A DNA stretch of 64,000 nt from the NCBI GenBank assembly GCA_937920495.1, contig CALEUQ010000039.1:8802-72801 (forward strand), given 5' to 3'. The notes beneath the pieces were generated by a model. That model did not search any database, was not told the DNA's origin, and worked only from the letters and a program-made list of their open reading frames with translations. Below, piece by piece: positions 1 through 23,880 of the stretch (position 1 is the first letter of the stretch; every line of letters begins with the position of its first letter). The DNA is from an uncultured bacterium (GTDB lineage Bacteria > Spirochaetota > UBA4802 > UB4802). The translations under genes and the position numbers were made by a program.

Positions 1-2536
1 AAAATAGCGATTTGGTTAAAAGCTTTTTTACAAATTTTTGATATAGGCCCAGCGTGTTATCTTTTTCAATAATAGGAATAATACCATCGCGCATTTCTTC
101 TAACCTGTATACAAGAGAATTGGAAAGCCGTTCTTTTATGCTTTTATCTTTAAATAATGAGAAGATATTGTTAAAGTTATCCCATACGGGATCATCCCAG
201 CGGGCCGCAAAATATCGCGAACCGCCCGAGCGCTTTTTCAATTCAATGGCACAGGCATTTCTGTTACAACTTGCCTTTGCCTCATTATCCAGAAGACCGT
301 GCGCTCGTGCAATCATTTCGGATAAGCTTTCCTTATGATGGCAAATGAGAATAGCAGCCGATATTGAAATCTTTTCACCCTTCCCCAGCTGAATTGCCAT
401 TTTCCCCACCTGAGGCGTAAACTTTTCTGATAAAGGAAAAACTTTTCCTTTATCATCCACAAATACAAACGGCTGGCAATAGACGTTCTGTATTTCTCTT
501 GCGGAATTCAATGCATTAAACGCTGGAAGTATTGCACAGATATCATCGCCACCAGCATATATGAGCCTTCCACGATACCGCTCAATAATTTCTTTTACAC
601 TGAAAAGTGAAAAATCACCCAGCGCCTCAGAAATTGCAGCATGAACTGCAGGAGAAAGCATCCTCTTTTTCAAAGATTGGCTTTTAAAAATATCTTCCCA
701 CTCTTTTGTATACACATCTGCAAGGGTTTTATTTTTTAGCTTATCTACAATTTCCGGATGTATCACAGTTTCCCACGTTGATGCCACGCTCTCACCATTG
801 ATGAGCGATCCCATATTGTCGCCATCCATTAAAAGTATGGCATAATACTTATCCTCTTCATACATCTTTATTTTTGTATGCACAACTTTCGCAATCTGCT
901 TTTCAAACTCATCATTTTCATGTAAATTCTGCGCTATTTCCCATTTATCATTTTTATTTTCAATATTGTATCTTTTAAAAAAATTATCAAGAGCTATTTC
1001 TGTTGTGGAGGGAAATGCGTCGGCATTGGCAAAGATATGTGATAATATATGTGAGTTTCCTTTTAGAACGATTGCAGCAAGCCTTTTCACCACACATACC
1101 GCACAAAGTTTTTCTCCCTCAGTAAAATCAAATTTCCCATACCCCTGTTTCACCTTTTCCCAGAATGCCTGTATATGCTTTGTGTATGTTGAAGCTTTCA
1201 CATCTTCAGGATATTCAACAGTATGAAGGACTTCAAACTCGCCGCATAAGTGGCACTTTTCACCATTTTCAGGAAGTCTATGAATGGTTCGCCTGCTCTT
1301 AGCAGATGCAAGCGCACTCTGCACAAGCCGATGCGTTACATTATAAAAACACCCCTGAAATGAACTGGAGGACAATTTTGCAAACTTTTGCGCCAGTTCC
1401 CAGGAAGCTTTATATACTTCTTCTTCAAAATAGTTTTTTAGGGAGTCAATATCCCTTTCCCCGATCATACCCGCACAGGCATAATTAATATCCCAGAAAA
1501 AACCTGTTTGACGTTTAAACATTTTTTCAATTGCATTTTTTTCTTTATCATTAATTGAACATTTTTTAACTATTGAAGAACATATCTGCAAAGAAAGCTC
1601 ATTCCATTTTGAAAGTATTGTTTCTTTTATTTTTTCACAAAAATCCTTAGCTTCAGAATAGGGAAGTAAAAACAAAAATTTATTTGGAAACGTGGCTATT
1701 TCGGATGGCTTTGGCAAACACGATTCCTGAATGAGCGCATCAAAGCCCGCAATACGTTTGAGATACATTTCAACCAGTGGCTGGTCAAGCAATGAAGGGT
1801 ACAATACATGATCAGGGCCAAGGTTCTCTGTCACATACCTGATGCCTTCAAATGCCAGCCATGACAGCAAAATCGATGAGGTCCAGTAATCCCGCAATTT
1901 GCGCGCTTTTGCAATAAAACCCTGCACAGGAGTTATGCTAAATACCGCAAGCGCTACTCCTTCCTGGGCTTTTGCAAGCTCCATGGAGCTATACAGCGCA
2001 GAAACAAGTGCATTGTGATGCCATATCGAGTGATCAGGCATGCGAGTATCAGCGGGTAATCTATGCCACAGCCCACCAAGTCCTGAGATATTTTTTGATG
2101 CAAGCCTGTACCGCAGCAAAAAATATAAGTAATAGAATCGATTGCGCACCCGTTCTATTTCATTGCCGCCATCAATTATTGTTATATCGTTTTCAATTAG
2201 TCCTTTAATTTCTTCGTAATTAATATCTTTAACATCTACATCTATTCCTATTCTGCTATTTGACGATACCGGATGGGTTGTTACTGGATTTTGTAAAAAA
2301 TTAACTGCGCCGCTTGTCTTTTCATCAGCTTGATACCCGGGCAACACCGCGCGTTCAAAACCAGCGGCCAACACATCTGCCGTTTTCCAGAATTTTTCCT
2401 GGCAGCTTTCCACTCCCAGCGCTTTGAGGTATTCAACTGCCCGCCCTTCATGTCCTGGTATTTTAAGCGCTTTATCAAAAGGATCGTGCAAAAAAGCTGC
2501 AATTTTATTATTCCAGTATGAAGTGTCTAAATTCAC
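1..2536 (-). CDS. cas10: Type III CRISPR-Cas Cas10/Cmr2 large subunit. It is 3'-partial because its C-terminus runs off the window start.
   Basis: The minus-strand reading frame is continuous from a GTG at 2536 (GGAGGA SD at 2542-2547) to position 1, about 845 codons. It is absent from the ORF track because it has no in-window stop. The translation shows an N-terminal HD motif (AAFLHDPFDK), a treble-clef zinc finger (CHLCGEF...CAVCVV) and a palm GGDD motif (LIYAGGDDICAI), in the canonical Cas10 domain order. Confidence 0.8.
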   Translation of the reverse strand, partial: MNLDTSYWNNKIAAFLHDPFDKALKIPGHEGRAVEYLKALGVESCQEKFWKTADVLAAGFERAVLPGYQADEKTSGAVNFLQNPVTTHPVSSNSRIGIDVDVKDINYEEIKGLIENDITIIDGGNEIERVRNRFYYLYFLLRYRLASKNISGLGGLWHRLPADTRMPDHSIWHHNALVSALYSSMELAKAQEGVALAVFSITPVQGFIAKARKLRDYWTSSILLSWLAFEGIRYVTENLGPDHVLYPSLLDQPLVEMYLKRIAGFDALIQESCLPKPSEIATFPNKFLFLLPYSEAKDFCEKIKETILSKWNELSLQICSSIVKKCSINDKEKNAIEKMFKRQTGFFWDINYACAGMIGERDIDSLKNYFEEEVYKASWELAQKFAKLSSSSFQGCFYNVTHRLVQSALASAKSRRTIHRLPENGEKCHLCGEFEVLHTVEYPEDVKASTYTKHIQAFWEKVKQGYGKFDFTEGEKLCAVCVVKRLAAIVLKGNSHILSHIFANADAFPSTTEIALDNFFKRYNIENKNDKWEIAQNLHENDEFEKQIAKVVHTKIKMYEEDKYYAILLMDGDNMGSLINGESVASTWETVIHPEIVDKLKNKTLADVYTKEWEDIFKSQSLKKRMLSPAVHAAISEALGDFSLFSVKEIIERYRGRLIYAGGDDICAILPAFNALNSAREIQNVYCQPFVFVDDKGKVFPLSEKFTPQVGKMAIQLGKGEKISISAAILICHHKESLSEMIARAHGLLDNEAKASCNRNACAIELKKRSGGSRYFAARWDDPVWDNFNNIFSLFKDKSIKERLSNSLVYRLEEMRDGIIPIIEKDNTLGLYQKFVKKLLTKSLF

Positions 2537-2574: not shown

Positions 2575-3573
2575 TTAATAAATTGTTTTTATATCTTGAC
2601 CGGAGTGAATCTTTTTTAGAACGCCGGACATTTTTTGAGTAACGTTTGCATACTCGCCATTATCAGCAAGGGGCCCCTGATATTTATATGGCAGTACTAA
2701 AATCTTTCCCTGATATTTTCCCTCTTCTGTCTTGTTTACATGCAAAAAGCATGTTTTGGCGTGCCTCCCGTCTTTTACTTCCTCTTCTTTTGCCTGGACA
2801 ATTGGTAGGGCAATATATTTTCTATTGCCGTAATCATGTTTATTAATTGCTATCTCCTGTGATAATCGCATGGTGCGGTATGCTATGCCAATCTCAGAAA
2901 GCGCATCTTCCCATTTTTCATGCACCTTGAAAGCAAATAACTGCGATTTCTTAGAAAACGAGGTATATTTTGCTTCATCGGTTGCTATTTTTTTATGAAA
3001 TTCAATTATCGGAACATCTTTTGAATATACAGATCCAAAGCCATTTCGGCTCTTTGCTCCCATTCCACCATAATGGATGAGTGCGCTCAAGGCTTTTTCC
3101 ACTTCATCTTTTACAGCTTCTGACGTGTACATACAGTGTAGTATAAACGTGCTGCCGGGTGCGATATGCTTTCTGGACCAATTATGATTAGATGGGTCGT
3201 AGATTCCCAATCCTAAATAGGTAAAAATATCTATGTTGAAATTCTTGTTTTGCCTGACTACCTCAACCTTTTTCCCCTCTGCAATTTTATCCTTAATTTC
3301 TATTTTCTTTGTTTCTATGAACATTGAGAAAGGTGACTTTGATAGTGAATCATTCATGGCAGAGCCAAATACTGCCGATTCCTGTTTTTTTAGTTCATCC
3401 AGATTATGTATTGGATGTATTGCTCGCCACCAGAAACGAAGCAATCCTTTTATTGAGGCAGCTCTAAGTTCAGGCCTGGATATATCCGCACCCGACATGA
3501 ACAACGGAGTGACAACCTCGATTTCATAACTTTTTTTTATCCTGTAATTATATTTACCAATGTAGAACGCCAT
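2575..3573 (-). CDS. cmr1: Type III-B RAMP protein, Cmr1-like (Cas7 superfamily). It is the first gene of the cmr operon.
   Basis: This 332-aa protein starts MAFYIGKYNYRIK...VVTPLFMSGAD...ELRAASIKGLLRFWWRA, the typical RAMP N-terminal signature. It lies immediately upstream of cas10 on the same strand and is preceded by a 970-bp gene-free region. Confidence 0.6.
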   Translation of the reverse strand: MAFYIGKYNYRIKKSYEIEVVTPLFMSGADISRPELRAASIKGLLRFWWRAIHPIHNLDELKKQESAVFGSAMNDSLSKSPFSMFIETKKIEIKDKIAEGKKVEVVRQNKNFNIDIFTYLGLGIYDPSNHNWSRKHIAPGSTFILHCMYTSEAVKDEVEKALSALIHYGGMGAKSRNGFGSVYSKDVPIIEFHKKIATDEAKYTSFSKKSQLFAFKVHEKWEDALSEIGIAYRTMRLSQEIAINKHDYGNRKYIALPIVQAKEEEVKDGRHAKTCFLHVNKTEEGKYQGKILVLPYKYQGPLADNGEYANVTQKMSGVLKKIHSGQDIKTIY

Positions 3574-4542
3574 TGTTCCCCCTAAATATTAATAAAAGTT
3601 TATTAATATCTAAAATAAACTGACATCCATTACATGAAGTACGATCTTTTTCAAGGCAGGTTTGCAACTTTAGCGTCCAGCCAAATACACCACGCAAGGC
3701 TATATCTGGAAAGTTGAAAAACCGTATAGGCTTGGTTGCGTGTAAAAGTATTTTAAATTTATATAATAGTAAGGTAGCTTTTTGTGATAATATCATTCAA
3801 ACTCCTTGTCTATTACAAAAACTAACAAATGATGTCATACATAAAAACAAAAGTCAAACACTTTTCATTTTTACAAATTCTATCAACTATACTTTTCATA
3901 TCAATAACAGTACAAATTAACCTAATTATATTCACTATTTAATTTAATTTTAATTGTTATATGATAATCGTCCCTATTCCATTTCAGGCAATGACTGCAT
4001 GCAGGGCAGCCTGAACAATCATAAAAAATGGGACTCTTCTGATCTAACAACCCACCTACTTTTACTATATGAGACCCTGTTCATACACATATACACTTTG
4101 TATAATGCAACCTCTGTTTTTACATTTTGTTTTGTTCGATAGTTACAGGCTATAAAACATCATTTTCTTAGCTATCCATATATATTAATGACAGTGATAA
4201 CCACAGTTTTATAGGAGTACTTTGCTTTTTATTTTTACCCGATTATACATACAATAGATAGAAAATCACTTAAATAGACGGTGAATGCAGGTGTTATGGA
4301 TTCATAAAATTATACCAGGTATGGTATAAAGAATTGTACTTCCAATCTACCACCGATTACGGTGTAAACCTTTCACATTGTGATTCACCTGTCATACACC
4401 TGAATCGTCACGCAAAGCGATTATTATTGTACAGCATGGCTTTTAGGTTACAGCAGGATACACACCTTTTACATAAACACAATTTTAATCATCATTAATA
4501 TTTCTACTTGACACCACCCATAACCTACTTTTTCCATAAACT

Positions 4543-6126
4543 ATGGAGCAACTTCATCATCTTATTACTCAATTAAATTCAAAACCTAAAGAAGAGCGTA
4601 ATAACTTTTACCGTGACGCTATATTACCAATTATAAGTGATTTGCTGCATCAGCAATATCAACAATATCTACAATCAAACAATTACAATTCATATTTAAC
4701 TCTCATCACAACGCTTTCACATGATATCAATATCTTACTGCTTTTACTGTACAGCATTAAGCCCAAATACCTTGTGGTATTTTATACCAGCGATAAAAAC
4801 AAGTTGATTGAAAAACTATACCCCCTAACTCAATCACTACAACTCAACATAGAAACAATACAGCTTGATAGTACCAATCACAACAATAACAATAGTAAAA
4901 TAAAGGATACAATCAAACGTTACAAAAAAAACTATCATCCTGTGCTATGCGACATCACAGGTGGCAAAAAGATTTTTTCAACACAAATTGGTATACTGGC
5001 GCATTCATTAAAAACCGACATTGCATACATTGATTCATCAAAAGGTTTTTTACAGTGGGGCATACCTCTGCCCGGCACTGAAATATTATACATTCAAAAA
5101 CCTGATAACATCTTCAATTTGCTTGAAATATATCATGCCAATAAATTGCGAATACGCTTTAACAGCATCTCTTCAAATATAGAGTATGAAGCCGATGTTA
5201 ATGGAAGGTTGTACAGGTTAGGCCAGAAAAAACTAAAACCAGAGGAAATCGATAAACTGGTAGATTATGTAAACCGCTTTTACATGGATATCAATGCTTC
5301 TATCATCAATAATTCATATTCCACAATTAACATGGGGAAATATGCTCTGTCATTTAAAACCCTTCTTTTTACAAAAGAGCTCAATCATTTCGTTTCAATA
5401 CACAACAATTTAACTCATTTAGTCATAGATAATGAATTGAGTGCGTTTCCGTGGGAATTTATCTTTGCTCACTGCAACGTAAGTTTACCACTGTTTCGTA
5501 TTCCCAATCGTGATAGTAATTTCATTGAAAATAATAAATGTAATAATCAAAAAAGCATTGCATTCATCACAGGTTATGGTGAAAATCTCCCGGATTTTGC
5601 AACCACAGTACATAATATTAAATTGCTGTTATCAAAAGAAAAACAATTTTCACTGGCTACTATCACCGCAAAAAACTCATTTGAATTAAAAAAATTTTTT
5701 GCCGAATATAGTTCCAATCCCTTTACAGTGGTTATATTTTTTGGCCATGCAGCATTTGGTAACTGCAGTGAAAACACAGGCTTGATATGCCAGGATGGAA
5801 GTATTTTTTCTATTGAAGATTGTGATGTGCTAAGCGGCTCCCCACCTGAATGCATACTCATTAATTCCTGTCAATCAGCTCGCTGCAGTTTGTTTACACC
5901 CAATTCTTTTGCTCATGCTGTTATAAATTCGGGAGTTGAAACCTATATTGGGACCCATTTTTTTTTAGAATATAAACGAAGTATTTGTTTTTTACAATCA
6001 TTTCTTAAAGCTATTGCATGCAACCACACTTATGCAGATGCGTATAAATATAGCATCGATAGCATTACTCAACAATTTGGCAAAAATGATATAAGTACAT
6101 ATAATTATGTATACTACGGATATTAA
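4543..6126 (+). CDS. Fusion of a CARF-domain sensor to a caspase/CHAT-like cysteine peptidase. It is a candidate cyclic-oligoadenylate-activated protease.
   Basis: This 527-aa protein has, at residues about 75-260, a beta1 strand ending in polar residues (LVVFYTSD) and the strand-4 [DN]x[ST]xxx[RK] CARF signature (DITGGKK). Its C-terminal 190 aa has a caspase-fold pattern: KSIAFITGYG, then a His in VVIFFGHAAFG, then a Cys in ECILINSCQSA, followed by a CHAT-like tail (NSGVETYIGTHFFLEYK). There is no SD before the only possible ATG, so the mRNA may be leaderless. The gene is adjacent to cmr1. Confidence 0.6.
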   Translation: MEQLHHLITQLNSKPKEERNNFYRDAILPIISDLLHQQYQQYLQSNNYNSYLTLITTLSHDINILLLLLYSIKPKYLVVFYTSDKNKLIEKLYPLTQSLQLNIETIQLDSTNHNNNNSKIKDTIKRYKKNYHPVLCDITGGKKIFSTQIGILAHSLKTDIAYIDSSKGFLQWGIPLPGTEILYIQKPDNIFNLLEIYHANKLRIRFNSISSNIEYEADVNGRLYRLGQKKLKPEEIDKLVDYVNRFYMDINASIINNSYSTINMGKYALSFKTLLFTKELNHFVSIHNNLTHLVIDNELSAFPWEFIFAHCNVSLPLFRIPNRDSNFIENNKCNNQKSIAFITGYGENLPDFATTVHNIKLLLSKEKQFSLATITAKNSFELKKFFAEYSSNPFTVVIFFGHAAFGNCSENTGLICQDGSIFSIEDCDVLSGSPPECILINSCQSARCSLFTPNSFAHAVINSGVETYIGTHFFLEYKRSICFLQSFLKAIACNHTYADAYKYSIDSITQQFGKNDISTYNYVYYGY

Positions 6127-6139
6127 TTGATTGCTAACA

Positions 6140-8182
6140 TTAAAATGGAAACAAATACCATAAAGTATTCCATTTGATAACAGGTGTATCTTTATACTTT
6201 TCTTGCACCTTTACTAAATAGTCATACAATGTTGTACCTAAACTTTGTTGTAACACTTTGTGCCATATTTTTTTTATTTCTTCCTGCAAGCTTTTTAATG
6301 AAGCACTATCTTTAAGCGATAAAAGCCAGATATAGTCAGCTCTTATTGATAATTCTTTTGTCAGGATTGTAACATTTTCATTTTTCATGCATAACTCACG
6401 TGCATGATTATAGAAGTCATTTGCTTGCTTTATGGATGAGTTTGAACCATATAGACCATACAAAACCATTACATAATGATATATAGAATGAACAGGATAG
6501 GTTGACACTTTTACCATTGATTCAACATTTGCTTTATACTTATTAAAACACGTAGTTACTATCTCATAATACTTTTTAACATTTTTTGAATAATCGTTCA
6601 TTAGCTCTACGTAGTATATACGCAAAAAATGCAATAATGGAAATAATAATGATCTTTTTAAGATATCTTCCAGCAATTGCATATCATTGTGATATTCAAC
6701 ACCACACCCTTTTGCTAGATTTCGTCTTGCTTCTTCAAAGTTTTTTGTATACGTTTCAATTTGTGCACAGTACTGATACTGACGCATGATGTCTTCAGAT
6801 TGAACAAAGCTTTGTAGTGCTTTTTTAGAAATGTCCCTCACTTCTTCCCAGCTGCCCCCGTGTATTAAAGTGTGATACATCTTTGCTTGCAATTTTGTTC
6901 CAATAATTTCACCAAGTATGCGTGGTTGCACAACTATATTCTCATCGCTTTCACTTAGAAAACTAAATGCCTCGCTTACTTTTTTTTCAAGATTGTGCAT
7001 TTCATTGAAAGACCATTCAAATGCATACATATTGGTAAGATGCACACCATAGAGTACCTTGATACGTAACCGCGCACTTAAATAATCTAAATCAAATGGA
7101 ATTGATTTGATAAATGAGTATGCCTGTCTGTATACATCTTCAAATGTATGTACATCACCTTTATGGTTATATAAAGTAAGCAGGATCATATAACAGTAGG
7201 TATATATCCAGTGAATGTCTTCTTTACGTTTACCATAATCAGGAAGTTTTTCTTCTAAACGTGGCAAAATGTTTTCTATTATAAATAATATATCACTGTC
7301 CAAATCTTTTAAAATTCTATCTTCATTTATTGCATTATAATAAAGAGCAAGCAAAGATGAAAATATACTGTTAATATAAAAGATATTTAGTTTACATAAC
7401 TGCTCTAAAACATCAGGTAGGATTTTTTTTACCGCATTATCCTTTAAAGCGTTGTCGATTAAATTCTTTAACGCATACTCATACAGATTATCATTCATCA
7501 AATTATTAATCTTTTCAGTAATGGTTGGTGAAGCATGAATATATATTTTATGTTGTTCTATCCATATATTGAATTTTTCTACTACTTTTTGATCATACCT
7601 ATCATTACCATTTATATGCGTATCTAATCTATAAAACGTATGAACAATTGCATCAGCTAATTGTAAAAAATAATTTTTTTTACTTTCCACCTCTACCTTG
7701 GTTTTTATGTTTCTATTAGGTAATGGTGATAATACTATGGCCTTTGTAACTAATTCGTTTATTCTTTCTTTATATTCTTCTTCTTTTATTCCTACTCTAT
7801 GTTCGATAGTAACCGTTAATTCACTAATATCCTGGAATAATTTTGATTTTTTTTTAATAAATGCAAAAATTCCCTCAGCCAGCACATGCAGGTAAGTTTT
7901 AGTATCATTTATAACATAAAAACCACGCTGAGGGATAAAGATTATCGGAATAATATCATTTTGTTTACAAAAATCTATCAAATTATCTATTACAGCCAAT
8001 AAAGTTGAATTTGATAATTCGTTACCATGAAAAATTTCAGATTCTAAATTAAATTGTCTAAAAAAATTTGCTACATCGTTACTTGTTAAAATTTTGTCTT
8101 TAATAAAAAAACCACCAACAATACTACGTTTTTGTTTATAACCCTGAAATTTTCCACTTTCATCAAGGTACAAATAAGCCAT
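6140..8182 (-). CDS. DUF3800-domain protein with a large C-terminal alpha-helical (TPR-like) domain. It is the last gene of the sigma/anti-sigma operon.
   Basis: This 680-aa protein has an N-terminus MAYLYLDESGKF... and a later QLADAIVHTFYR, matching the DUF3800 (yiDESG...QlAD) signature. About 480 helical residues follow. It begins 15 nt after the anti-sigma stop, with GATGGA upstream. Confidence 0.5.
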   Translation of the reverse strand: MAYLYLDESGKFQGYKQKRSIVGGFFIKDKILTSNDVANFFRQFNLESEIFHGNELSNSTLLAVIDNLIDFCKQNDIIPIIFIPQRGFYVINDTKTYLHVLAEGIFAFIKKKSKLFQDISELTVTIEHRVGIKEEEYKERINELVTKAIVLSPLPNRNIKTKVEVESKKNYFLQLADAIVHTFYRLDTHINGNDRYDQKVVEKFNIWIEQHKIYIHASPTITEKINNLMNDNLYEYALKNLIDNALKDNAVKKILPDVLEQLCKLNIFYINSIFSSLLALYYNAINEDRILKDLDSDILFIIENILPRLEEKLPDYGKRKEDIHWIYTYCYMILLTLYNHKGDVHTFEDVYRQAYSFIKSIPFDLDYLSARLRIKVLYGVHLTNMYAFEWSFNEMHNLEKKVSEAFSFLSESDENIVVQPRILGEIIGTKLQAKMYHTLIHGGSWEEVRDISKKALQSFVQSEDIMRQYQYCAQIETYTKNFEEARRNLAKGCGVEYHNDMQLLEDILKRSLLFPLLHFLRIYYVELMNDYSKNVKKYYEIVTTCFNKYKANVESMVKVSTYPVHSIYHYVMVLYGLYGSNSSIKQANDFYNHARELCMKNENVTILTKELSIRADYIWLLSLKDSASLKSLQEEIKKIWHKVLQQSLGTTLYDYLVKVQEKYKDTPVIKWNTLWYLFPF

Positions 8183-8197
8183 AACGCAGTGTCCATC

Positions 8198-8749
8198 TTA
8201 TTTTGTTATATTAATTTTAATAATCTTTTTAAAATCAAATAGCAGCACTATATTACCTGGCTCAACTGACGAAAATTGCGCTGTATTGTTAGTAATAGTT
8301 GCTATATCAAATCTACTTCCAGTAAGCAGATGTATTTTTATACCATTTACGGGACTGTATATCACCACATCAATTGCTTTGTTATTATATATAATTTTAA
8401 CTTTAATTATTTTGTCATTATAAGGATACTCTATTTCTACTACCGGAAGTTTTTCATTTTCTAACACATATACTTGAGATTGCACTACATATTTTGAACA
8501 TACCTGAGGAATGAAAATATTATCTTGATATTTAATATCCAATATGAATGTGTCATCATCAATATTAAATTCATCTTCCATTGTTAAGAAATAATCTTCA
8601 TAAAGCTGTCTACATTGTGTGCATTCATTTAAATGATGAAACACTTTATCAATTGTTTTTTCATCAGTAATTGTACCATCAGCAACGCCCAATACCATAT
8701 CCTGCAAATCATCATTGCAATTAGATGAGTATATATGTAACTGCGTCAT
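8198..8749 (-). CDS. Zinc-binding anti-sigma factor (ZAS family, HxxxCxxC).
   Basis: This 183-aa protein has an N-terminal HHLNECTQCRQLYEDY, which is the H-x3-C-x2-C ZAS motif. Its start ATG overlaps the sigma-factor TGA stop (ATGA), indicating translational coupling. The C-terminal ~120 aa is beta-rich. Confidence 0.6.
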   Translation of the reverse strand: MTQLHIYSSNCNDDLQDMVLGVADGTITDEKTIDKVFHHLNECTQCRQLYEDYFLTMEDEFNIDDDTFILDIKYQDNIFIPQVCSKYVVQSQVYVLENEKLPVVEIEYPYNDKIIKVKIIYNNKAIDVVIYSPVNGIKIHLLTGSRFDIATITNNTAQFSSVEPGNIVLLFDFKKIIKINITK

Positions 8750-9378
8750 GACAGTATCTCCTCTTCAACTTCAGGATATTTCTTCTTAACTGCAGATAAA
8801 ATACGTTTTTTGATTTTTTCTATGCGTTCATATACGGAGGGTTGGGAAAGTTTTATCATTTGGGCAACTTCTGCTTGCGTTTTTTTATACAAAAAATACC
8901 ATGTGTAAATTAATTTATCTTTTTCATCAAACGTATCCAGTGTATTTTTAATAATATTTAAAATATCATTTTTCACAATTTCATCTGTAAAATCTATTGA
9001 TACCGGATGGAACAAATCAAAGATGCTAATATTGTCATCATCCTGCTCTTCTGATTGATTGCTGTCAATATCAACTTGTCTAATAAATTTGTTTTTTTTA
9101 TTAACATAACTAATTACACTATTACGTATTATCTTGAACAGGTAAGTTTTAAATTTACTTTTTCCCTTGTAATTGGCAATACCATTCAGAAAAAGTTTAA
9201 AACATACATTCTGGAAAATGTCTTCAATATCATCTTCATTAAGATTGTAATTTTTTACATAATTAATTTTTTTTATAGTACGTTTTATAAAGTCTAAATG
9301 TTCAATGAGCAATTGTTGTGGCGTTTTATCATCCATTATTATAAATACCATCTCAATTGGTAATATTTCATTACTCAT
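8746..9378 (-). CDS. ECF-type RNA polymerase sigma factor (sigma-70 family, regions 2 and 4).
   Basis: Region 2 is DDIEDIFQNVCFKLFLNGIANYKGKSKFKTYLFKIIRNSVISYV. Region 4 HTH is KLIYTWYFLYKKTQAEVAQMIKLSQPSVYERIEKIKKRI. The start is ambiguous: the ORF track starts at 9438, M21 is at 9378 and M35 is at 9336. Confidence 0.75.
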   Translation of the reverse strand: MSNEILPIEMVFIIMDDKTPQQLLIEHLDFIKRTIKKINYVKNYNLNEDDIEDIFQNVCFKLFLNGIANYKGKSKFKTYLFKIIRNSVISYVNKKNKFIRQVDIDSNQSEEQDDDNISIFDLFHPVSIDFTDEIVKNDILNIIKNTLDTFDEKDKLIYTWYFLYKKTQAEVAQMIKLSQPSVYERIEKIKKRILSAVKKKYPEVEEEILS

Positions 9379-9603
9379 TCTTTTATATTTACTGATGTTG
9401 TCAATAATAAAATATTTCAATATATATTTTAAATACATATACTGTACGTGACATTACCATATTACGCTAAACCTTACACGCTTTGTATTAATTAGACTGG
9501 ATTACATTGATAATTATTGTAAAATTTTGTGGATTGGTTTTTTTATTTTTTTGAATACATATACCAGGCAAGTGAAATGTCATAGTAAATTTGAATGATC
9601 TAA

Positions 9604-11664
9604 TTAATGCACCGTATTCTTCATTCTGTACGCATCACGGTCAAACTTCTCATAAATTTTTTTCTTTATAAAAAGCTCTACAATATCCTTATCCAGTTTA
9701 TTCTTATCTGCCTCTTCTTTTATTATACTCAGTGCTTGCTCTAATGTAATGGGCGGTTTATAGGGCCTGTCGGTAGCAATTAAGGCATCAAATATATCAG
9801 CAAGCGCCATGATACGTGCCTGCAGTGGTATCTGCTCACCTTTTAGTCCGTAGGGATAACCGGTGCCATCAAGCTTTTCGTGATGCTTTGCGGCAATCTC
9901 AGGAATGCGTGCAAACTCTGGCGGCCATGGGATCTTGCTTACAAAGTTATACGTATGCACCACATGGCTTTCTATTTCACGACGTTCATCATCGTTCAAG
10001 CTTCCGCGCTTTATGCTTAAATTTTTGATATAGTAATCATTGAATATTTCCAATGCATTATTTTCCACATCACAGCATTCAAGCGACTGCAACAAGGCTT
10101 GCAAATTTTTTACCTCTTTTTCAACATCCATTTCTCTTACCATTGGGTTGTTGAGCTCTATGACTTTCTGGCGCGCCTGAAGTATTGTATGCAACACATT
10201 ATCGCGTTCAGATTCAATAGCGGTAACGTGTTCAAGGCGTGCATCAAATTCAGCTTCTTTTTTGATTTCATTATATACTGCCATAGCATACTTCAACTGC
10301 TGATACCGGTACAGATATTCAAGCTTAAGCAAAATATTTTCAAGATCCTTTGGATACAATTTATGTGATTTTAAAAAGATTGCAGTGTCAATATACACCT
10401 TACCAAAGTCATGCAAAAGTGCCGCATATTCAAGCTCTTTTAATTCGGTTTCAGAAAACGTTGTTGTAGCAAATGGTCCTGATGTGTCCTCACCAATTGC
10501 CTGCGCAATCTTTAAGCACATATCAGCAACCCTGAATGAGTGGCCCGACGTGGCAACATCACGTGATTCAATGGCAGTTACCGATGCCCTGACAAATTCT
10601 TCAAACTGTTTTTGAATCTGACGTATCATGCGGTTATTTTCTATGGCGATAGCCGCCTGCGAGGCCACCGCTTCCATCAAACTTTCGTATCGTTTCTGAA
10701 ATGGCACTACTTTTGTATTAAAATCTTCTTCACACGTTAATTTAATTGAATACGCTTCATTGCCATCATACGCATTTTCAATATCTTCCTTGCTGTTAAT
10801 AAGCTGTATGACACCAATCGTTTTATTTACATGATTAATCATGGGTACTACAAGCATTGATTTTGAGCGATAGTTATGCGCCTTATCAAATGACGAATTA
10901 AATGCCACCGGATCATCAGGACCTAATTTATATACATCGGGTATATTGAGCACCTGCTGGGTTACTGCAACATACCCTGCTATTGAATTTTTATCCATTG
11001 GTATGGTGAACTCTTCATACGGCAGATCCTTTGAAAAGGTGTGCGAGTGCTTAAACCGTAAGAATTTATTCCCGTTTTTTTCTTCAACCAGATATATACT
11101 ACCTGCATCAGCACCGGTAATGGTCTTGCTTAAATGCAAAATTAATTTCAATAACCGGTCGGGATTTTTTTCAATTGATAGCGCTTTGCCTATATTAATT
11201 AACGCATCAAAATCTCTCTGAGTATCTGCAAGCTGATGTATATGCTGACGGCTTAACTTTTTAAACTCGCCATGCGAGTGGGCAATAAATTTTGCTTTGG
11301 ATATTATAAATTTAAACTCTACTTCACTGATTCCATTTCTATACAAAGCAATGACATCCTGCATCATGGTTGTAGTATATTTAGAGCCAACACATACAAA
11401 GCCCACATAAAGATTATTATTGTGTGCTTCAATATTGCGCACTATTGATTTTACTTCATCATAGTGATGCGATGGTATAATATATACCACAGCAGTACAA
11501 CTTCCAGGATCAGCATTAATTGCATGCAGTATTGCGGGCAGTTCATTATATGGAGTGTAAACGTAGTGAATATCTGCGCCACTTTCTTTAGGCAGGGCAA
11601 CAGCATCTTTCAACATACTATCTATAATAATACAGCACTGTAGTTTTAATGAGTCCACCAACAC
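9604..11664 (-). CDS. GAF-domain / HD-GYP-domain cyclic-di-GMP phosphodiesterase.
   Basis: This 686-aa protein has a GAF-like central region and a C-terminal HD-GYP signature (ALLHDFGK ... [14 protein letters not shown]). Confidence 0.8.
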
Positions 11665-11735
11665 ACTCTTAACATATATACTAATCTTAACTCACAATCC
11701 ATAAAATAAATAAAAAGTCAATGTAAAAAAAATAT

Positions 11736-13154
11736 TCATATTTCTATTTCCTGAGAAATAGTATGCAATTCTTCCTGATCGGGAGCTTGGGCAGGTTTGT
11801 GTACTTTGTCATCAAATTTCAAGAATGCTTCTGCCTCATCTGCTGTTACGGTTTGGGTTATAATCTCTTCTTCAGCAATTTCTTTTTTTGTTTCTGCCAT
11901 TTCCTCTTTAACAACCGTTGTTTCTTTTTGTGATGTTTCTTTCTTCTCTTCTTTTTCTTCTTCACCTTCAATGATAGCCATGTGGTCGCGGGATTTAAAA
12001 TATTTGGCTTTGGCAGTAAGCTGGCTGGGTTTTTCAATTATTGTTTCGCCAACGTTAAACTGCAAATTTGAATCCGACAAAAGCAGATTTGTTGTTTTTT
12101 CCATTCTGGACGCAACATATCCCAGCATCCTGAAAAGCTCATCAATACCAAAGTTAAGCGTAACCGGGTCATTGCTCTTTAATGAAACACCTTTCTCAAC
12201 AAGTTTATTTTCAAGCAGGGCATAAATCCGTGTAATTGGCTTGTCGTATAGCTGTGACTCAAGTTGTATATAGGTAAACCAAATGCGGTGCGATAGTTCC
12301 TTGAAAATAAGCTGCGTTATGGCAGGCATCTGTTCCATAACTGCAGTAAGCGATTCTTTCTTTATAGGAAGTAGTACAGTTTTGCCCCAGCTTATTGCAG
12401 CAGCATTACGCGGCTTTTCCGATATTAACGCCATCTCCCCAAACACATCGCCATCTTTTAATACAGAAAGTATTATCTCGCTTTCGCTGGATAATTTAAC
12501 AATTTTTACCCTGCCCTCTTTGATAATGTACATCTCATTTCCGGGCTCATCCTCGCAGAAGATCATCTGCTGGTCTGCATACACTTTATACGGTGCCTGG
12601 ATTACCGGAGCTATCGCCCCCTTTACCTTATCTTTAATGCTTTCCAACATTGTGGTAACTACACTGGCAAAAAGCCCCTGTGGGTACAGCTCCAGATAGC
12701 GCTTGCAGCAGTAATACGCATGGTTGTTGCTTCCATTATTATAAAAGTACCTGATGTGATTATACAGTGCTTCTTCAGGTGTTTCAAGCTCCACGCCTTT
12801 ATCCTTCAAGGCTATCATCATCTCATTATATGCTCTAAGCTCATTAGAAAAATAGTTTAACACCTTAATAGCTATCTGAGGCTTTTTTGATAAAAGATTC
12901 ATAAACTCCTGTTTGGTAAGTGATGTTATGACAGTATCCACACGTGCTATGGCAGATTCCATGCGTGGCTTATTGCATAGTGCCGCAATCACGCCAAAGA
13001 ATTCACCATCTTTCAGTATATTTTTATATATGGGAGCGTTCTTATTATAGCGATCTAACTGCACAACACCTTTATCAACGATGTACACAGTGTCCGCGTC
13101 TTCATCACCTTCTATATATATGTATGCTCCCTTTTTAAAAAGGCTCTTTTTCAT
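11736..13154 (-). CDS. Protein with tandem cyclic-nucleotide-binding (cNMP/CAP-effector) domains and an acidic/lysine-rich C-terminal tail.
   Basis: Two cNMP-binding signatures are present: YIYIEGDEDADTVYIVDKGVV...GEFFGVIAAL, and MYIIKEGRVKIVKL...GDVFGEMALISEKPRNAAAISW. The C-terminus is EEKEEKKE-rich. Confidence 0.75.
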   Translation of the reverse strand: MKKSLFKKGAYIYIEGDEDADTVYIVDKGVVQLDRYNKNAPIYKNILKDGEFFGVIAALCNKPRMESAIARVDTVITSLTKQEFMNLLSKKPQIAIKVLNYFSNELRAYNEMMIALKDKGVELETPEEALYNHIRYFYNNGSNNHAYYCCKRYLELYPQGLFASVVTTMLESIKDKVKGAIAPVIQAPYKVYADQQMIFCEDEPGNEMYIIKEGRVKIVKLSSESEIILSVLKDGDVFGEMALISEKPRNAAAISWGKTVLLPIKKESLTAVMEQMPAITQLIFKELSHRIWFTYIQLESQLYDKPITRIYALLENKLVEKGVSLKSNDPVTLNFGIDELFRMLGYVASRMEKTTNLLLSDSNLQFNVGETIIEKPSQLTAKAKYFKSRDHMAIIEGEEEKEEKKETSQKETTVVKEEMAETKKEIAEEEIITQTVTADEAEAFLKFDDKVHKPAQAPDQEELHTISQEIEI

Positions 13155-21184: not shown

Positions 21185-22144
21185 ATGGCTCTGACCCCAA
21201 CACCCGTACGAACATTACAACATTACCTGGAAGAAGCCATCTTTGTGGGACAGGCCCACCGGCTTGGCGTGTTTAAAGAACTTTATACAAAGCCAGATAC
21301 ATCAGATGGCCTTGCAAAAAGAATGCAATTTGACACACGCGCAACATGGATACTTTTAGAAGCGCTTGTTGAATTGGGATACCTTGAAAAAAATAATGAA
21401 ATCTATAGTCCCACAGAATATTGCACACATCATTTAATTGACGAAAAAAACGATGAATACGAGGGTAACTTTTTACAGTTCTTACTGTATCTCATCAACC
21501 CGTGGCGCACATTGCCTCATGTACTAAGTACCGGAAGTCCTGATGAATCCAGCTTTAAGGAATTATCCATGCATGATTTTATCAAAGGTATGGATTCCCC
21601 CTGGAAAAAGAAATTAGCGCCTGAAATAGTTGACCTGTGTATTGCACATTGCTCTGACCCCACAACCTGCATTGACATAGGTGGTGCCCCCGGAACAATT
21701 GCCAGAGAATTTGTGCGCAGGGGAATTAAAACAATAGTATTTGATCTGCCTCAATCACTAGCAATAACTCAAGATGAGTTGACAACCATCCCCAATATAG
21801 AAGTAATAGCAGGCGATGCAACAGTTGCATTACCGGATCGCAAGGTTGATATAGCATTTTTAGGAAATCTGTGCCATGGGCAAGGGCCTGAAGATAATCA
21901 GAAAATAATAACCATGTGCTATGATAGCCTTAATAAGAATGGTATCATAGCTATATTTGATAACTTACGAAACGAAAGTTATTTAGGTGCAACGCTTGCT
22001 CTTCACATGTTAACCCAAAGCAAAAAGGGCAATATCTATTCACGCCAGGAATATTTTGGATGGCTGGGCAATGCCGGCTTTAAAACACCTAAAGTATACC
22101 AGCTATCCGATAGGGCATGGCAGCTTATTATTGCAAAAAAATAA
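21185..22144 (+). CDS. SAM-dependent O-methyltransferase (Methyltransf_2-like, with an N-terminal dimerisation/wHTH domain).
   Basis: The protein shows CIDIGGAPGTIAREF...IKTIVFDLPQ, with an N-terminal wHTH-like region. Confidence 0.7.
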   Translation: MALTPTPVRTLQHYLEEAIFVGQAHRLGVFKELYTKPDTSDGLAKRMQFDTRATWILLEALVELGYLEKNNEIYSPTEYCTHHLIDEKNDEYEGNFLQFLLYLINPWRTLPHVLSTGSPDESSFKELSMHDFIKGMDSPWKKKLAPEIVDLCIAHCSDPTTCIDIGGAPGTIAREFVRRGIKTIVFDLPQSLAITQDELTTIPNIEVIAGDATVALPDRKVDIAFLGNLCHGQGPEDNQKIITMCYDSLNKNGIIAIFDNLRNESYLGATLALHMLTQSKKGNIYSRQEYFGWLGNAGFKTPKVYQLSDRAWQLIIAKK

Positions 22145-22510
22145 AGAGGGGTACATAAGCCGGATTCTGTTTTGACAGCCATCAATCTTGCATGCATGTT
22201 GCCATGCATGTCTATGCGGCCTACCCGCAACCTTGAGCGGGCAACTCTGATAACGGTTGCCTATTTGGCCTTGCACCGGATGGGGTTTGCACTGCCACCT
22301 GCATTACTGCAGATGCGGTGAGCTCTTACCTCGCCTTTTCACCCTTACCCCACTATGGGGCGGTATATTTTCTGCTGCACTTTCCGTCGCCTTACAGCGC
22401 CCGGGCGTTACCCGGCATCCTGCCCTGTGGTGTCCGGACTTTCCTCACAACAATGCACACACCACACTGTGTATGTACATTGTGCGCATGCCGTCTGTAC
22501 CCCTCTTACT
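22142..22510 (-). ncRNA. rnpB: RNase P RNA (bacterial type A), M1 RNA.
   Basis: The minus-strand read gives AAGAGGGGTACAGACGG...GTGAGGAAAGTCCGGACACCACAGGGCAGGATGCCGGGTAACGCCCGGGCGCTG...GGTAAGGGTGAAAAGGCGAGGTAAGAGCTCACCGC...GTGCAAGGCCAAATAGG...GCGGGTAGGCCGC...ACAGAATCCGGCTTATGTACCCCTCTT. This matches the E. coli P4, P10-12, P15 and P18 consensus blocks. The P1 5' and 3' ends are complementary and followed by a U-tract. The track ORFs 22257-22603 on + lie inside it and are spurious. Confidence 0.85.
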
Positions 22511-23490: not shown

Positions 23491-23605
23491 AGTTCCCCGA
23501 AAGCGCGATTGGCCAATCGCGTTTTCGGGGAACTATCGCGCTTTCGGGGAACTATCGCGCTTTCGGGGAACTATCGCGCTTTCGGGGAACTATCGCGCTT
23601 TCAGG
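23491..23605. repeat. A 44-bp near-perfect palindrome followed by about 4.7 tandem copies of a 19-bp unit (ATCGCGCTTTCGGGGAACT).
   Basis: Read directly from the sequence: AGTTCCCCGAAAGCGCGATTGG|CCAATCGCGTTTTCGGGGAACT, then three full copies of ATCGCGCTTTCGGGGAACT and a partial copy. There are no spacers, so it is not a CRISPR array. Confidence 0.9.
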
Positions 23606-23880
23606 TGGCACCCTCATGAGGATATACCATCATGCCTTGGTTAGGATGGAACTGCTACGCACCTTGCAATAACGGCAGGATGGCAAAAGCACTTACATTT
23701 TTTGTATTTTTTATAATTTCCCTAAAATTTTGAATCAGCTTAAAAATTTAAAATAAAATTGTTGCAATTTTTACAGGTCATAAAAATTATTGTCTATCAT
23801 TTTTCCAGATGATTCTACACCATAATTAACTGAATATATTGATGTGTCTTTGAGCAATACAGCGGTGTGTGAATAAAAAA

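Follow-up and report, generated by a model that had tools for sequence, protein, structure and literature searches.

The subject of this analysis was an open reading frame (ORF) at positions 4543–6126 of a 64-kb stretch of DNA (64,000 nucleotides of contig CALEUQ010000039.1 from an uncultured Spirochaetota bacterium), hereafter called the window. The encoded protein, named here CARF-CHAT, joins a CARF sensor domain to a CHAT protease module, and its gene is located between type III-B cmr genes and a cluster coding for a sigma factor, an anti-sigma factor and a nuclease. We favour, with moderate confidence, the view that CARF-CHAT is a caspase-like protease gated by cyclic oligoadenylate (cOA) and constitutes the sensor-protease arm of a four-gene module that also encodes a sigma factor of the extracytoplasmic function (ECF) type, a zinc-binding anti-sigma factor and a nuclease. 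The gene and its parts were located as follows:

4543–6126, plus strand: CARF-CHAT gene, ATG start, 527 amino acids (aa) plus stop codon, placed from the ORF list and homologs
4681–5142, plus strand: CARF sensor domain, residues ~47–200, after a long N-terminal helix (residues 1–46)
4951–4971, plus strand: DITGGKK, CARF ligand-site motif, residues 137–143, recognised from invariant residues and alignment to Can2 and TtCsm6
5143–6123, plus strand: CHAT/separase-like protease module, residues ~201–527, with a beta/helical front half and a caspase-fold catalytic half (~336–527)
5746–5748, plus strand: codon of H402, predicted catalytic histidine, invariant in 25 sequences and one column from Csx29 H585
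5869–5871, plus strand: codon of C443, predicted catalytic cysteine, invariant and aligned to Csx29 C627

An earlier interpretation made from the letters alone (the sequence-only reading) had proposed this ORF, and exactly this ORF was recovered with all the motifs quoted there at the spacing given. The opposite strand of 4543–6126 was full of stop codons, and an identical protein (P0001) was present in public assemblies. A word-indexed search of 5.8 billion proteins revealed 14 full-length homologs with 40–100% identity. When 1.84 billion cluster representatives were searched exhaustively with a profile, the result was about 17 full-length clusters of 513–545 aa (clustering at 50% identity), beyond which only proteins with one of the two halves were matched. 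Further cluster representatives extended the family down to 24% identity, and in an alignment of 25 sequences reaching that level D137, T139, G141, K142, K143, H402 and C443 were among the invariant positions. By these comparisons, the ORF is a real conserved gene under selection. All 13 full-length genomic matches among GTDB representatives were metagenome-assembled genomes of Spirochaetota/Leptospirales. Family profiles were needed to annotate the protein, single-sequence searches being uninformative: phmmer with the CARF-CHAT sequence against the PDB gave a chance match only, NCBIfam held no model for the protein and PADLOC no full-length model. An AlphaFold2 (AF2) model built from the family alignment had a mean predicted local distance difference test (pLDDT) score of 84.

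Residues 35–203 were matched by PADLOC CARF models (CARF1--CARF_HEPN, 1.6e-18; CARF_m2--CARF_LON, 2e-12; several Csx1 models), and in the PDB the family profile found Can2 (8.4e-6), Csm6 of T. thermophilus (TtCsm6, 1.6e-5) and the ring nuclease Sso2081 (~4e-3). Pfam Csa3_N was matched by 12 of the 14 members and CARF_Card1 by seven of the 14. The ligand-site motif, lying in CDITGGKK (residues 136–143), was aligned on NVTGGTK of Can2 and DLTSGTK of TtCsm6, with K143 matching K137 of TtCsm6, which is the mutated position in PDB entry 8jbc. A Foldseek search with the AF2 model gave the same CARF and CHAT picture as the profiles. The Rossmann-like alpha/beta fold, the profile membership and the [DN]x[ST]xG..K motif after strand 4, all marks of the CARF superfamily, were thus found, and the N-terminal half of CARF-CHAT is, as judged from sequence profiles and models, a single CARF domain. 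This bears out the CARF assignment that the sequence-only reading had based on DITGGKK. That reading had also placed the first strand of the domain at LVVFYTSD; the strand is present (YLVVFYTSD, residues 75–83), but the AF2 model and the Can2/Csm6 alignments put LTLIT (53–57) first, followed by an SHD loop, and LVVFYTS (76–82) second. A SAVED identity of the N-terminal domain was rejected, as all sensor matches were single-CARF families and none was SAVED in Pfam, PADLOC or fold searches. Two Planctomycetota loci (L022 and L023, match at ~10001–10585) were observed to encode two proteins of 520–570 aa having only the CARF half in common with the family (E ~1e-17 to 1e-18) and ending in another C-terminus.

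In the other half of the protein, Pfam CHAT was matched above threshold (4.8e-8, residues 347–500), accompanied by a weak separase (Peptidase_C50) match over residues 223–307. H402 lies within VVIFFGHAAFG and C443, 41 residues further, within ECILINSCQSA, and the CHAT-like tail NSGVETYIGTHFFLEYK is found at residues 462–478. When the catalytic-half profile was compared with Csx29, C443 fell exactly on C627 and H402 one column off H585. These two residues form the published catalytic dyad of Csx29, equivalent to H2003/C2029 of separase (PMC9729208). The G-H and C-x-S-A motifs around H402 and C443 were invariant in the 25 sequences. The caspase-hemoglobinase fold with CHAT/separase architecture and the His-then-Cys dyad at the ends of two central strands, as in clan CD, were found, and residues ~201–527 make up, on the strength of these alignments, a complete CHAT/separase-type module with an intact predicted active site. 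The caspase-fold layout read from the C-terminus earlier is thereby supported by alignment. Outside the family, the CHAT half was most closely related to protein kinase-TPR-CHAT proteins of ~1280 aa (P0032, P0034 and P0040; E 1e-36 to 1e-59), which suggests that the protease module of CARF-CHAT may have been borrowed from that lineage.

It was considered whether the CHAT module could be non-catalytic, acting as a scaffold, or whether the protein could serve as a CARF ring nuclease or cOA sponge tuning Csx1 signalling. Some CARF domains do degrade cOA, TtCsm6 and Crn1 being among the nearest relatives, and pseudo-protease CHAT and separase domains exist. Such a role is very improbable, as His402, Cys443 and the motifs around them persist unchanged to 24% identity, the pair superposes on an experimentally validated dyad, and the conserved partnership with an anti-sigma factor (below) is hard to explain without proteolysis, which supports an active CHAT. 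A pseudo-protease was rejected because the dyad is invariant.

The partner genes on the right of CARF-CHAT were the following:

8746–9438, minus strand: ECF-type sigma-70 family sigma factor, 230-aa ORF (TIGR02937 sigma70-ECF, 1.7e-24; Pfam Sigma70_r2 and r4)
8198–8749, minus strand: ZAS-type (zf-HC2) anti-sigma factor, 183 aa (zinc motif, overlap with the sigma gene, name of a homolog)
8462–8467, minus strand: codons of V95-L96 of the anti-sigma factor, candidate cleavage site (speculative), invariant in 16 sequences
6140–8182, minus strand: DUF3800-TPR protein, 680 aa (N-terminal DUF3800 domain; structure model)

The DUF3800 and anti-sigma genes had already been seen to adjoin in the sequence-only reading. 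It overlooked that the sigma/anti-sigma pair is the strongest conserved link of CARF-CHAT and that the DUF3800 protein is of nuclease-TPR type. The sigma factor also scored on the type III-E CRISPR-associated RpoE-like model NF041236 (8.6e-11, below the model cutoff), and its true start may lie near M35, as homologs in related loci were aligned from residue ~35. The start of the anti-sigma gene overlaps the sigma stop by 4 nt. The anti-sigma protein consists of an N-terminal zinc-binding, sigma-binding domain, a variable linker and a beta-rich C-terminal domain, and its C11, H39, C43 and C46 (HxxxCxxC plus an upstream Cys) did not vary among 16 sequences, the most distant of which had 20% identity. 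We take this arrangement in a 183-aa protein to be RsrA-like. A direct model match was only weak (RsrA, 5e-3), and one homolog was named a zf-HC2 domain protein by NCBI; the HxxxCxxC with its upstream ligand and the position of the gene directly after an ECF sigma gene are those of a ZAS anti-sigma factor. V95-L96 is an invariant dipeptide within the otherwise variable inter-domain stretch.

The DUF3800-TPR gene is the last of the sigma/anti-sigma operon and is convergent with CARF-CHAT, a 13-nt gap separating the two. Its product comprises an RNase H-fold nuclease domain (residues 1–215, nt 7538–8182) and a TPR solenoid (~220–680), modelled with a pLDDT of 87.9, and D7, E8, E143 and D177 were invariant. 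The RNase H-like fold, the conserved acidic residues and the TPR repeats after them were those of DUF3800 proteins, and the window protein matches published accounts of TPR-DUF3800, which describe it as an accessory with RNase H fold that accompanies Cas12a2 and type VI-F systems. Alignment across loci revealed no conserved motif upstream of the sigma genes that could represent a shared promoter, and a sigma-70 promoter/terminator scan stayed at background in this AT-rich DNA (43 sites vs 41 expected).

Directly past the sigma gene (9604–13154, minus strand) a GAF plus HD-GYP-type (HD_5) protein and a 472-aa protein with two cyclic nucleotide monophosphate (cNMP)-binding domains were encoded. 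These genes were syntenic in the related loci L002–L005 and L009 (77–89% identity) and absent beside the module in L006–L008, and therefore they are probably a housekeeping-like flank outside the module, though both are nucleotide-signalling proteins.

To follow the gene partnership, the fetched loci carrying relatives (L002, L003 and so on) were scanned twice, by tblastn with the window proteins and with hidden Markov models from the family alignments. A gene of this particular ZAS anti-sigma family was identified beside CARF-CHAT in L002–L010, L012, L015, L016, L019, L020 and L021, and a search from the anti-sigma side added L024–L026. Of the informative loci, all except L013 (a 9.7-kb contig with neither gene) had the sigma gene, the ZAS anti-sigma gene or both beside CARF-CHAT; L014 had the sigma gene only. 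L011 and L018 were too short or truncated on the relevant side, and L017 was short, with the sigma gene at its edge. The partnership held even at 20–30% identity, also where CARF-CHAT was only 28–33% identical, and in rearranged gene orders.

The accompanying nuclease varied. DUF3800-TPR was present in the closer clade (window, L002–L009, L011, L012), and a Dna2/MkoA-like SF1 helicase-nuclease of 1060–1180 aa was encoded directly after CARF-CHAT in L016–L018 and L024–L026, the distance being 45 bp in L025 and L026; it was also found in L003–L005. The core module is thus CARF-CHAT, sigma and anti-sigma, with an exchangeable and usually present nuclease. Other genes were noticed near individual family members. 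WYL-domain proteins were encoded nearby in L024 and L025. A subtilase gene (Peptidase_S8, ~1e-42) stood beside CARF-CHAT in L009 (2432–3703, minus strand) and L010 (4367–5731, plus strand) and may mean that certain forms of the module include a second protease. A 134–141-aa protein without family matches was encoded directly upstream of CARF-CHAT in L002 (3045–3449) and L003 (5755–6180, plus strand); it belongs to the cas1-cas2-linked relatives and has no counterpart in the window, where a 746-bp gap precedes the gene.

The regular presence of a nuclease raised the alternative that the cOA-activated CHAT module acts on this partner (DUF3800-TPR or Dna2-like), by cleavage or by peptide capture at the TPR, and that the sigma pair controls expression only. 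A nuclease accompanies both locus variants and is co-transcribed with CARF-CHAT in the Dna2-like one (variant B); the TPR of DUF3800-TPR resembles the peptide receptors Rap, PlcR, AimR and NprR; CHAT domains classically work with TPRs; SAVED-CHAT cleaves and activates a second enzyme; and DUF3800-TPR is an accessory to Cas12a2 and type VI-F systems. Nevertheless, we regard this alternative as unlikely, as the kind of nuclease varies and none was seen in the available sequence of L010, L015, L019, L020 and L021, which kept sigma/anti-sigma. Moreover, the two nuclease types are unrelated, and a common cleavage mechanism for them would be less economical than a common anti-sigma substrate.

To the left of CARF-CHAT, the window contained genes of a type III-B system:

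<1–2536, minus strand: cas10/cmr2, 5' part of the gene with HD and GGDD motifs, the 3' end lying beyond the window start
2575–3573, minus strand: cmr1, type III-B RAMP (TIGR01894, 2.1e-19; Pfam RAMPs, 4.3e-20)
3554–3796, minus strand: 80-aa ORF resembling the Cas6 N-terminus only, a truncated cas6 remnant or a small N-terminal-domain protein (PADLOC Cas6; Pfam AF_1859_N)

In a public assembly, this contig (L001) carried cmr1, cas10, cmr3, cmr4, cmr5 and cmr6, then genes for Csx1 (CARF9-HEPN) and Cas_APE2256. The window Cas10 was identical to the 885-aa Cas10 of L001 (Pfam Cmr2_N and Cas10-Cmr2_palm2). Its translation contains FLHDPFD (HD) and YAGGDDICAIL (GGDD), so that both motifs are kept, as had been claimed, and the protein looks cyclase-competent. 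The claim that CARF-CHAT lies directly beside cmr1 needed correction: cmr1 and cas10 are nearby, but the genes are divergent and separated by the 80-aa Cas6-like ORF and the gap. This ORF was matched to PADLOC Cas6 with 3.8e-7 over model positions 3–51 of 296 and overlaps the cmr1 start; the 746 bp beyond it (3797–4542) are without ORFs. GC content was 28–34% in the 4–10 kb stretch vs 36–41% in the flanks. Elsewhere in the window, a full-length Rfam match (301 bits) to bacterial class A RNase P RNA was detected at 22141–22506 on the minus strand, a 19-nt unit ATCGCGCTTTCGGGGAACT was repeated head to tail at 23516–23610 (~4.6 copies, 98% identity), and no tRNA genes were found in the 64 kb.

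A link to CRISPR was also visible in relatives. L002, L003–L005 and L009 were located at the chromosomal site also seen in the window (GAF-HD-GYP, cNMP-binding, DJ-1 and Pth genes), with cas2-cas1 immediately upstream. In L002 (590–1321), a CRISPR array of at least 10 repeats (~36 nt, GTCGCAATCCCCTATCAGCGGGGAAGTTTTTCGAG, 73–79-nt period) was located beside cas2-cas1, directly upstream of the module, and two array repeats were detected at the contig end of L003 (1–102). In L021 (5161–9197), a 28%-identical CARF-CHAT gene was followed directly by genes coding for Csx1 (CARF2-HEPN, 2e-131) and a CARF7-DUF2103 protein (1.6e-101), with sigma and anti-sigma genes 4 kb upstream and no cmr genes in the 15.8-kb contig. 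L021 is a linkage to cOA sensors independent of the window and its syntenic relatives.

Several observations weigh against dependence of the module on type III signalling. The CRISPR-adjacent close relatives (window, L002, L003–L005, L009) share a housekeeping flank and represent roughly one evolutionary event. The cmr operon was adjacent in this genome only, the window Cmr proteins matching by tblastn only the window and L001, and no cas genes were found within the available 3–20 kb in at least eight other loci. Neither TRF nor a repeat finder detected a CRISPR array in the window or the 10 kb on its left, and of cas6 just a fragment is left at the window locus. The window Cmr system is thus only putatively active, and the locus may use Cas6 and an array elsewhere or be partly decayed. 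PADLOC and Pfam scans of unexplained neighbours revealed no cas10 in L010, L013, L014, L019, L020 and L021. With no cas gene in reach, L006–L008 lay beside a Zorya-like ZorA/ZorB/DUF8245 set, L010 beside genes for a subtilase and a DprA-like protein, and L025 among WYL, HEPN/MNT, PIN and SNase genes. The association of homologs with type III systems, on which the sequence-only reading depended, was thus borne out in part: by cmr here, by cas1-cas2 and an array in close relatives at the same site and by Csx1/CARF7 in L021, several other loci showing no cas gene within reach.

These data could be explained if the module were a self-standing defence or stress switch, the CARF domain sensing another nucleotide or non-CRISPR cOA and the adjacency of cmr reflecting island clustering. 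The many homologs beside non-CRISPR genes, the island-like GC of the module, below that of its flanks, and the existence of CARF clades not linked to CRISPR (Crf3 and Crf6 in a 2025 table of type III signalling components) are in line with this. We nonetheless consider it rather improbable: the module was associated with the cOA pathway at least twice independently (once in the window and the loci syntenic with it, once in L021 beside Csx1 and CARF7), the CARF motif and the closest structural relatives are those of CRISPR effectors binding cyclic tetra-adenylate (cA4), CARF effectors commonly work in trans from elsewhere in the genome, and no alternative cyclase (CD-NTase/SMODS or mCpol) was found beside any homolog.

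In the favoured cOA-gated scheme, the type III-B Cmr complex would bind invader RNA and the Palm domain of Cas10 would make cOA. CARF proteins act as homodimers, which is the basis of the proposed activation step: cOA would bind the CARF sensor of the protein, in all likelihood where the two subunits of a homodimer meet, and the His402/Cys443 site of CHAT would be switched on. The cOA species is most likely cA4 by analogy, because the closest solved CARF relatives (TtCsm6, Can2, Crn1, Csa3 and Cam1) bind cA4 and because the co-resident Csx1 and CARF7 families are cA4-responsive in the 2025 table; type III loci generally rely on one species of cOA. The activated protease would then cut the cytoplasmic anti-sigma factor between its zinc-binding and C-terminal domains. 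That the anti-sigma factor is the substrate is inferred from analogy with two known systems, CalpL/CalpT/CalpS, in which a cA4-activated protease cuts an anti-sigma factor, and Craspase, in which Csx29 cuts Csx30, releasing a sigma factor (RpoE), and from its constancy as a partner while the nuclease varies. The cut might fall after Val95-Leu96, a speculative site suggested by conservation and by analogy with Csx29, which requires Leu or Met at P1 (PMC9825189). The freed ECF sigma factor would drive defence transcription, probably including its own operon, and would presumably raise the expression of the DUF3800(RNase H-fold)-TPR nuclease encoded last in that operon here, the likely executioner.

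An elaborated version was also entertained, in which cA4 from Cmr opens a CARF-dimer-gated protease and a single anti-sigma cut both frees sigma and makes a peptide or neo-terminus arming the TPR nuclease. A TPR of the Rap/PlcR/AimR type would read the peptide, and the TPR-CHAT unit of Craspase would be split across two proteins. Proteolysis would thereby supply a nuclease with an intracellular "peptide signal". As a whole, this three-layer circuit, of a kind not known from earlier work, is a long shot.

Among known systems, CalpL-T-S shares with the module a cOA sensor-protease fusion, a cytoplasmic anti-sigma factor and an ECF-type sigma factor beside type III-B, with the same expected release of sigma. 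The sensor here is CARF instead of SAVED, the protease a cysteine enzyme of CHAT/caspase fold instead of a serine Lon, the anti-sigma factor ZAS (zf-HC2), the module includes a gene for a nuclease (DUF3800-TPR or Dna2-like), and activation probably does not proceed via SAVED head-to-tail stacking. Because it lacks both Lon and SAVED domains, CARF-CHAT is an analogue of CalpL and not a homologue. SAVED-CHAT/PCaspase of Haliangium ochraceum (type III-B) has the same protease fold; here, in contrast, the sensor is CARF, with cA4 expected instead of cyclic triadenylate (cA3) and a CARF dimer instead of a cA3-glued filament, and the likely substrate is an anti-sigma factor instead of a second caspase. 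No PCaspase (Peptidase_C14), PCi or kinase genes were found in the window, and no caspase genes among the scanned neighbours in related loci. With its CARF sensor and no PCaspase, the module does not belong to SAVED-CHAT, though it probably works similarly.

Craspase of type III-E (Csx29 TPR-CHAT, Cas7-11, Csx30, Csx31 and RpoE) has an equivalent His/Cys dyad and likewise couples a CRISPR-controlled protease to an ECF sigma factor; the preference of Csx29 would be satisfied by Leu at the candidate P1 position, and the sigma factor scores on the type III-E model, below its cutoff. Csx29, however, is activated by contact with the RNA-bound effector without a second messenger, whereas here CARF replaces TPR in the protease and it is the nuclease encoded nearby that carries the TPR. 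Homologs of Csx30 and Csx31 were not detected, and as there is no Cas7-11 and the protease is without TPR, the module is not a Craspase. Csx1/Csm6, Can2/Card1, Cami1, Cad1 and Cam1 resemble CARF-CHAT in the CARF sensor with the same ligand-site motif, the fusion to an effector and the location near type III systems, but their effectors are nucleases, a deaminase or membrane domains and not a caspase-fold protease. PADLOC does include a CARF-Lon model (CARF_m2); no combination of CARF with a caspase-fold protease was present among its CARF models. In DdvA/DdvS of Myxococcus xanthus, which controls an island with a cyclic oligonucleotide-based antiphage signalling system (CBASS) and type III-B, CHAT resides inside a transmembrane anti-sigma factor without CARF, whereas here protease and anti-sigma factor are separate cytoplasmic proteins.

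The phrase "CARF-CHAT" was not found in a literature text search, and targeted searches gave only work on SAVED-CHAT, CalpL and Craspase. No CARF plus caspase entry was present in the 2025 table. The 188-system list of Altae-Tran et al. contained SAVED-CHAT variants, "CARF_Sigma" and "Sigma_factor + Csx1 + large Csx1" and no CARF_CHAT; it is conceivable that the last-named entry (UAS-75) is this module, differently labelled. The view that the fusion is uncharacterised was upheld across these sources and PADLOC, the 2020 CARF classification, which may mention a minor clade, lying outside this coverage. CARF-CHAT is probably a variant of the CRISPR-triggered protease switches represented by CalpL, SAVED-CHAT and Craspase, by which bacteria under viral attack are reprogrammed, and a logical but undescribed combination.

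To our knowledge, only three routes lead from CRISPR RNA sensing to proteolysis: SAVED-Lon (CalpL), SAVED-CHAT and the messenger-free Craspase. If the proposed function is true, the sensor domain found most often in type III systems would also be able to control an enzyme of the caspase-like kind, presumably by a dimer-based mechanism instead of the filament or stacking mechanisms of SAVED. A 527-aa protease with an apparently dedicated, soluble 183-aa substrate candidate might be developed into a cA4-switchable tool for reporters and diagnostics. The pairing of sigma/anti-sigma with an RNase H-fold or Dna2-like nuclease would be tractable for studying how transcriptional reprogramming and nucleic-acid destruction are combined in type III immunity, and the module would place DUF3800-TPR accessory proteins, which are poorly understood, in a setting where they can be tested.

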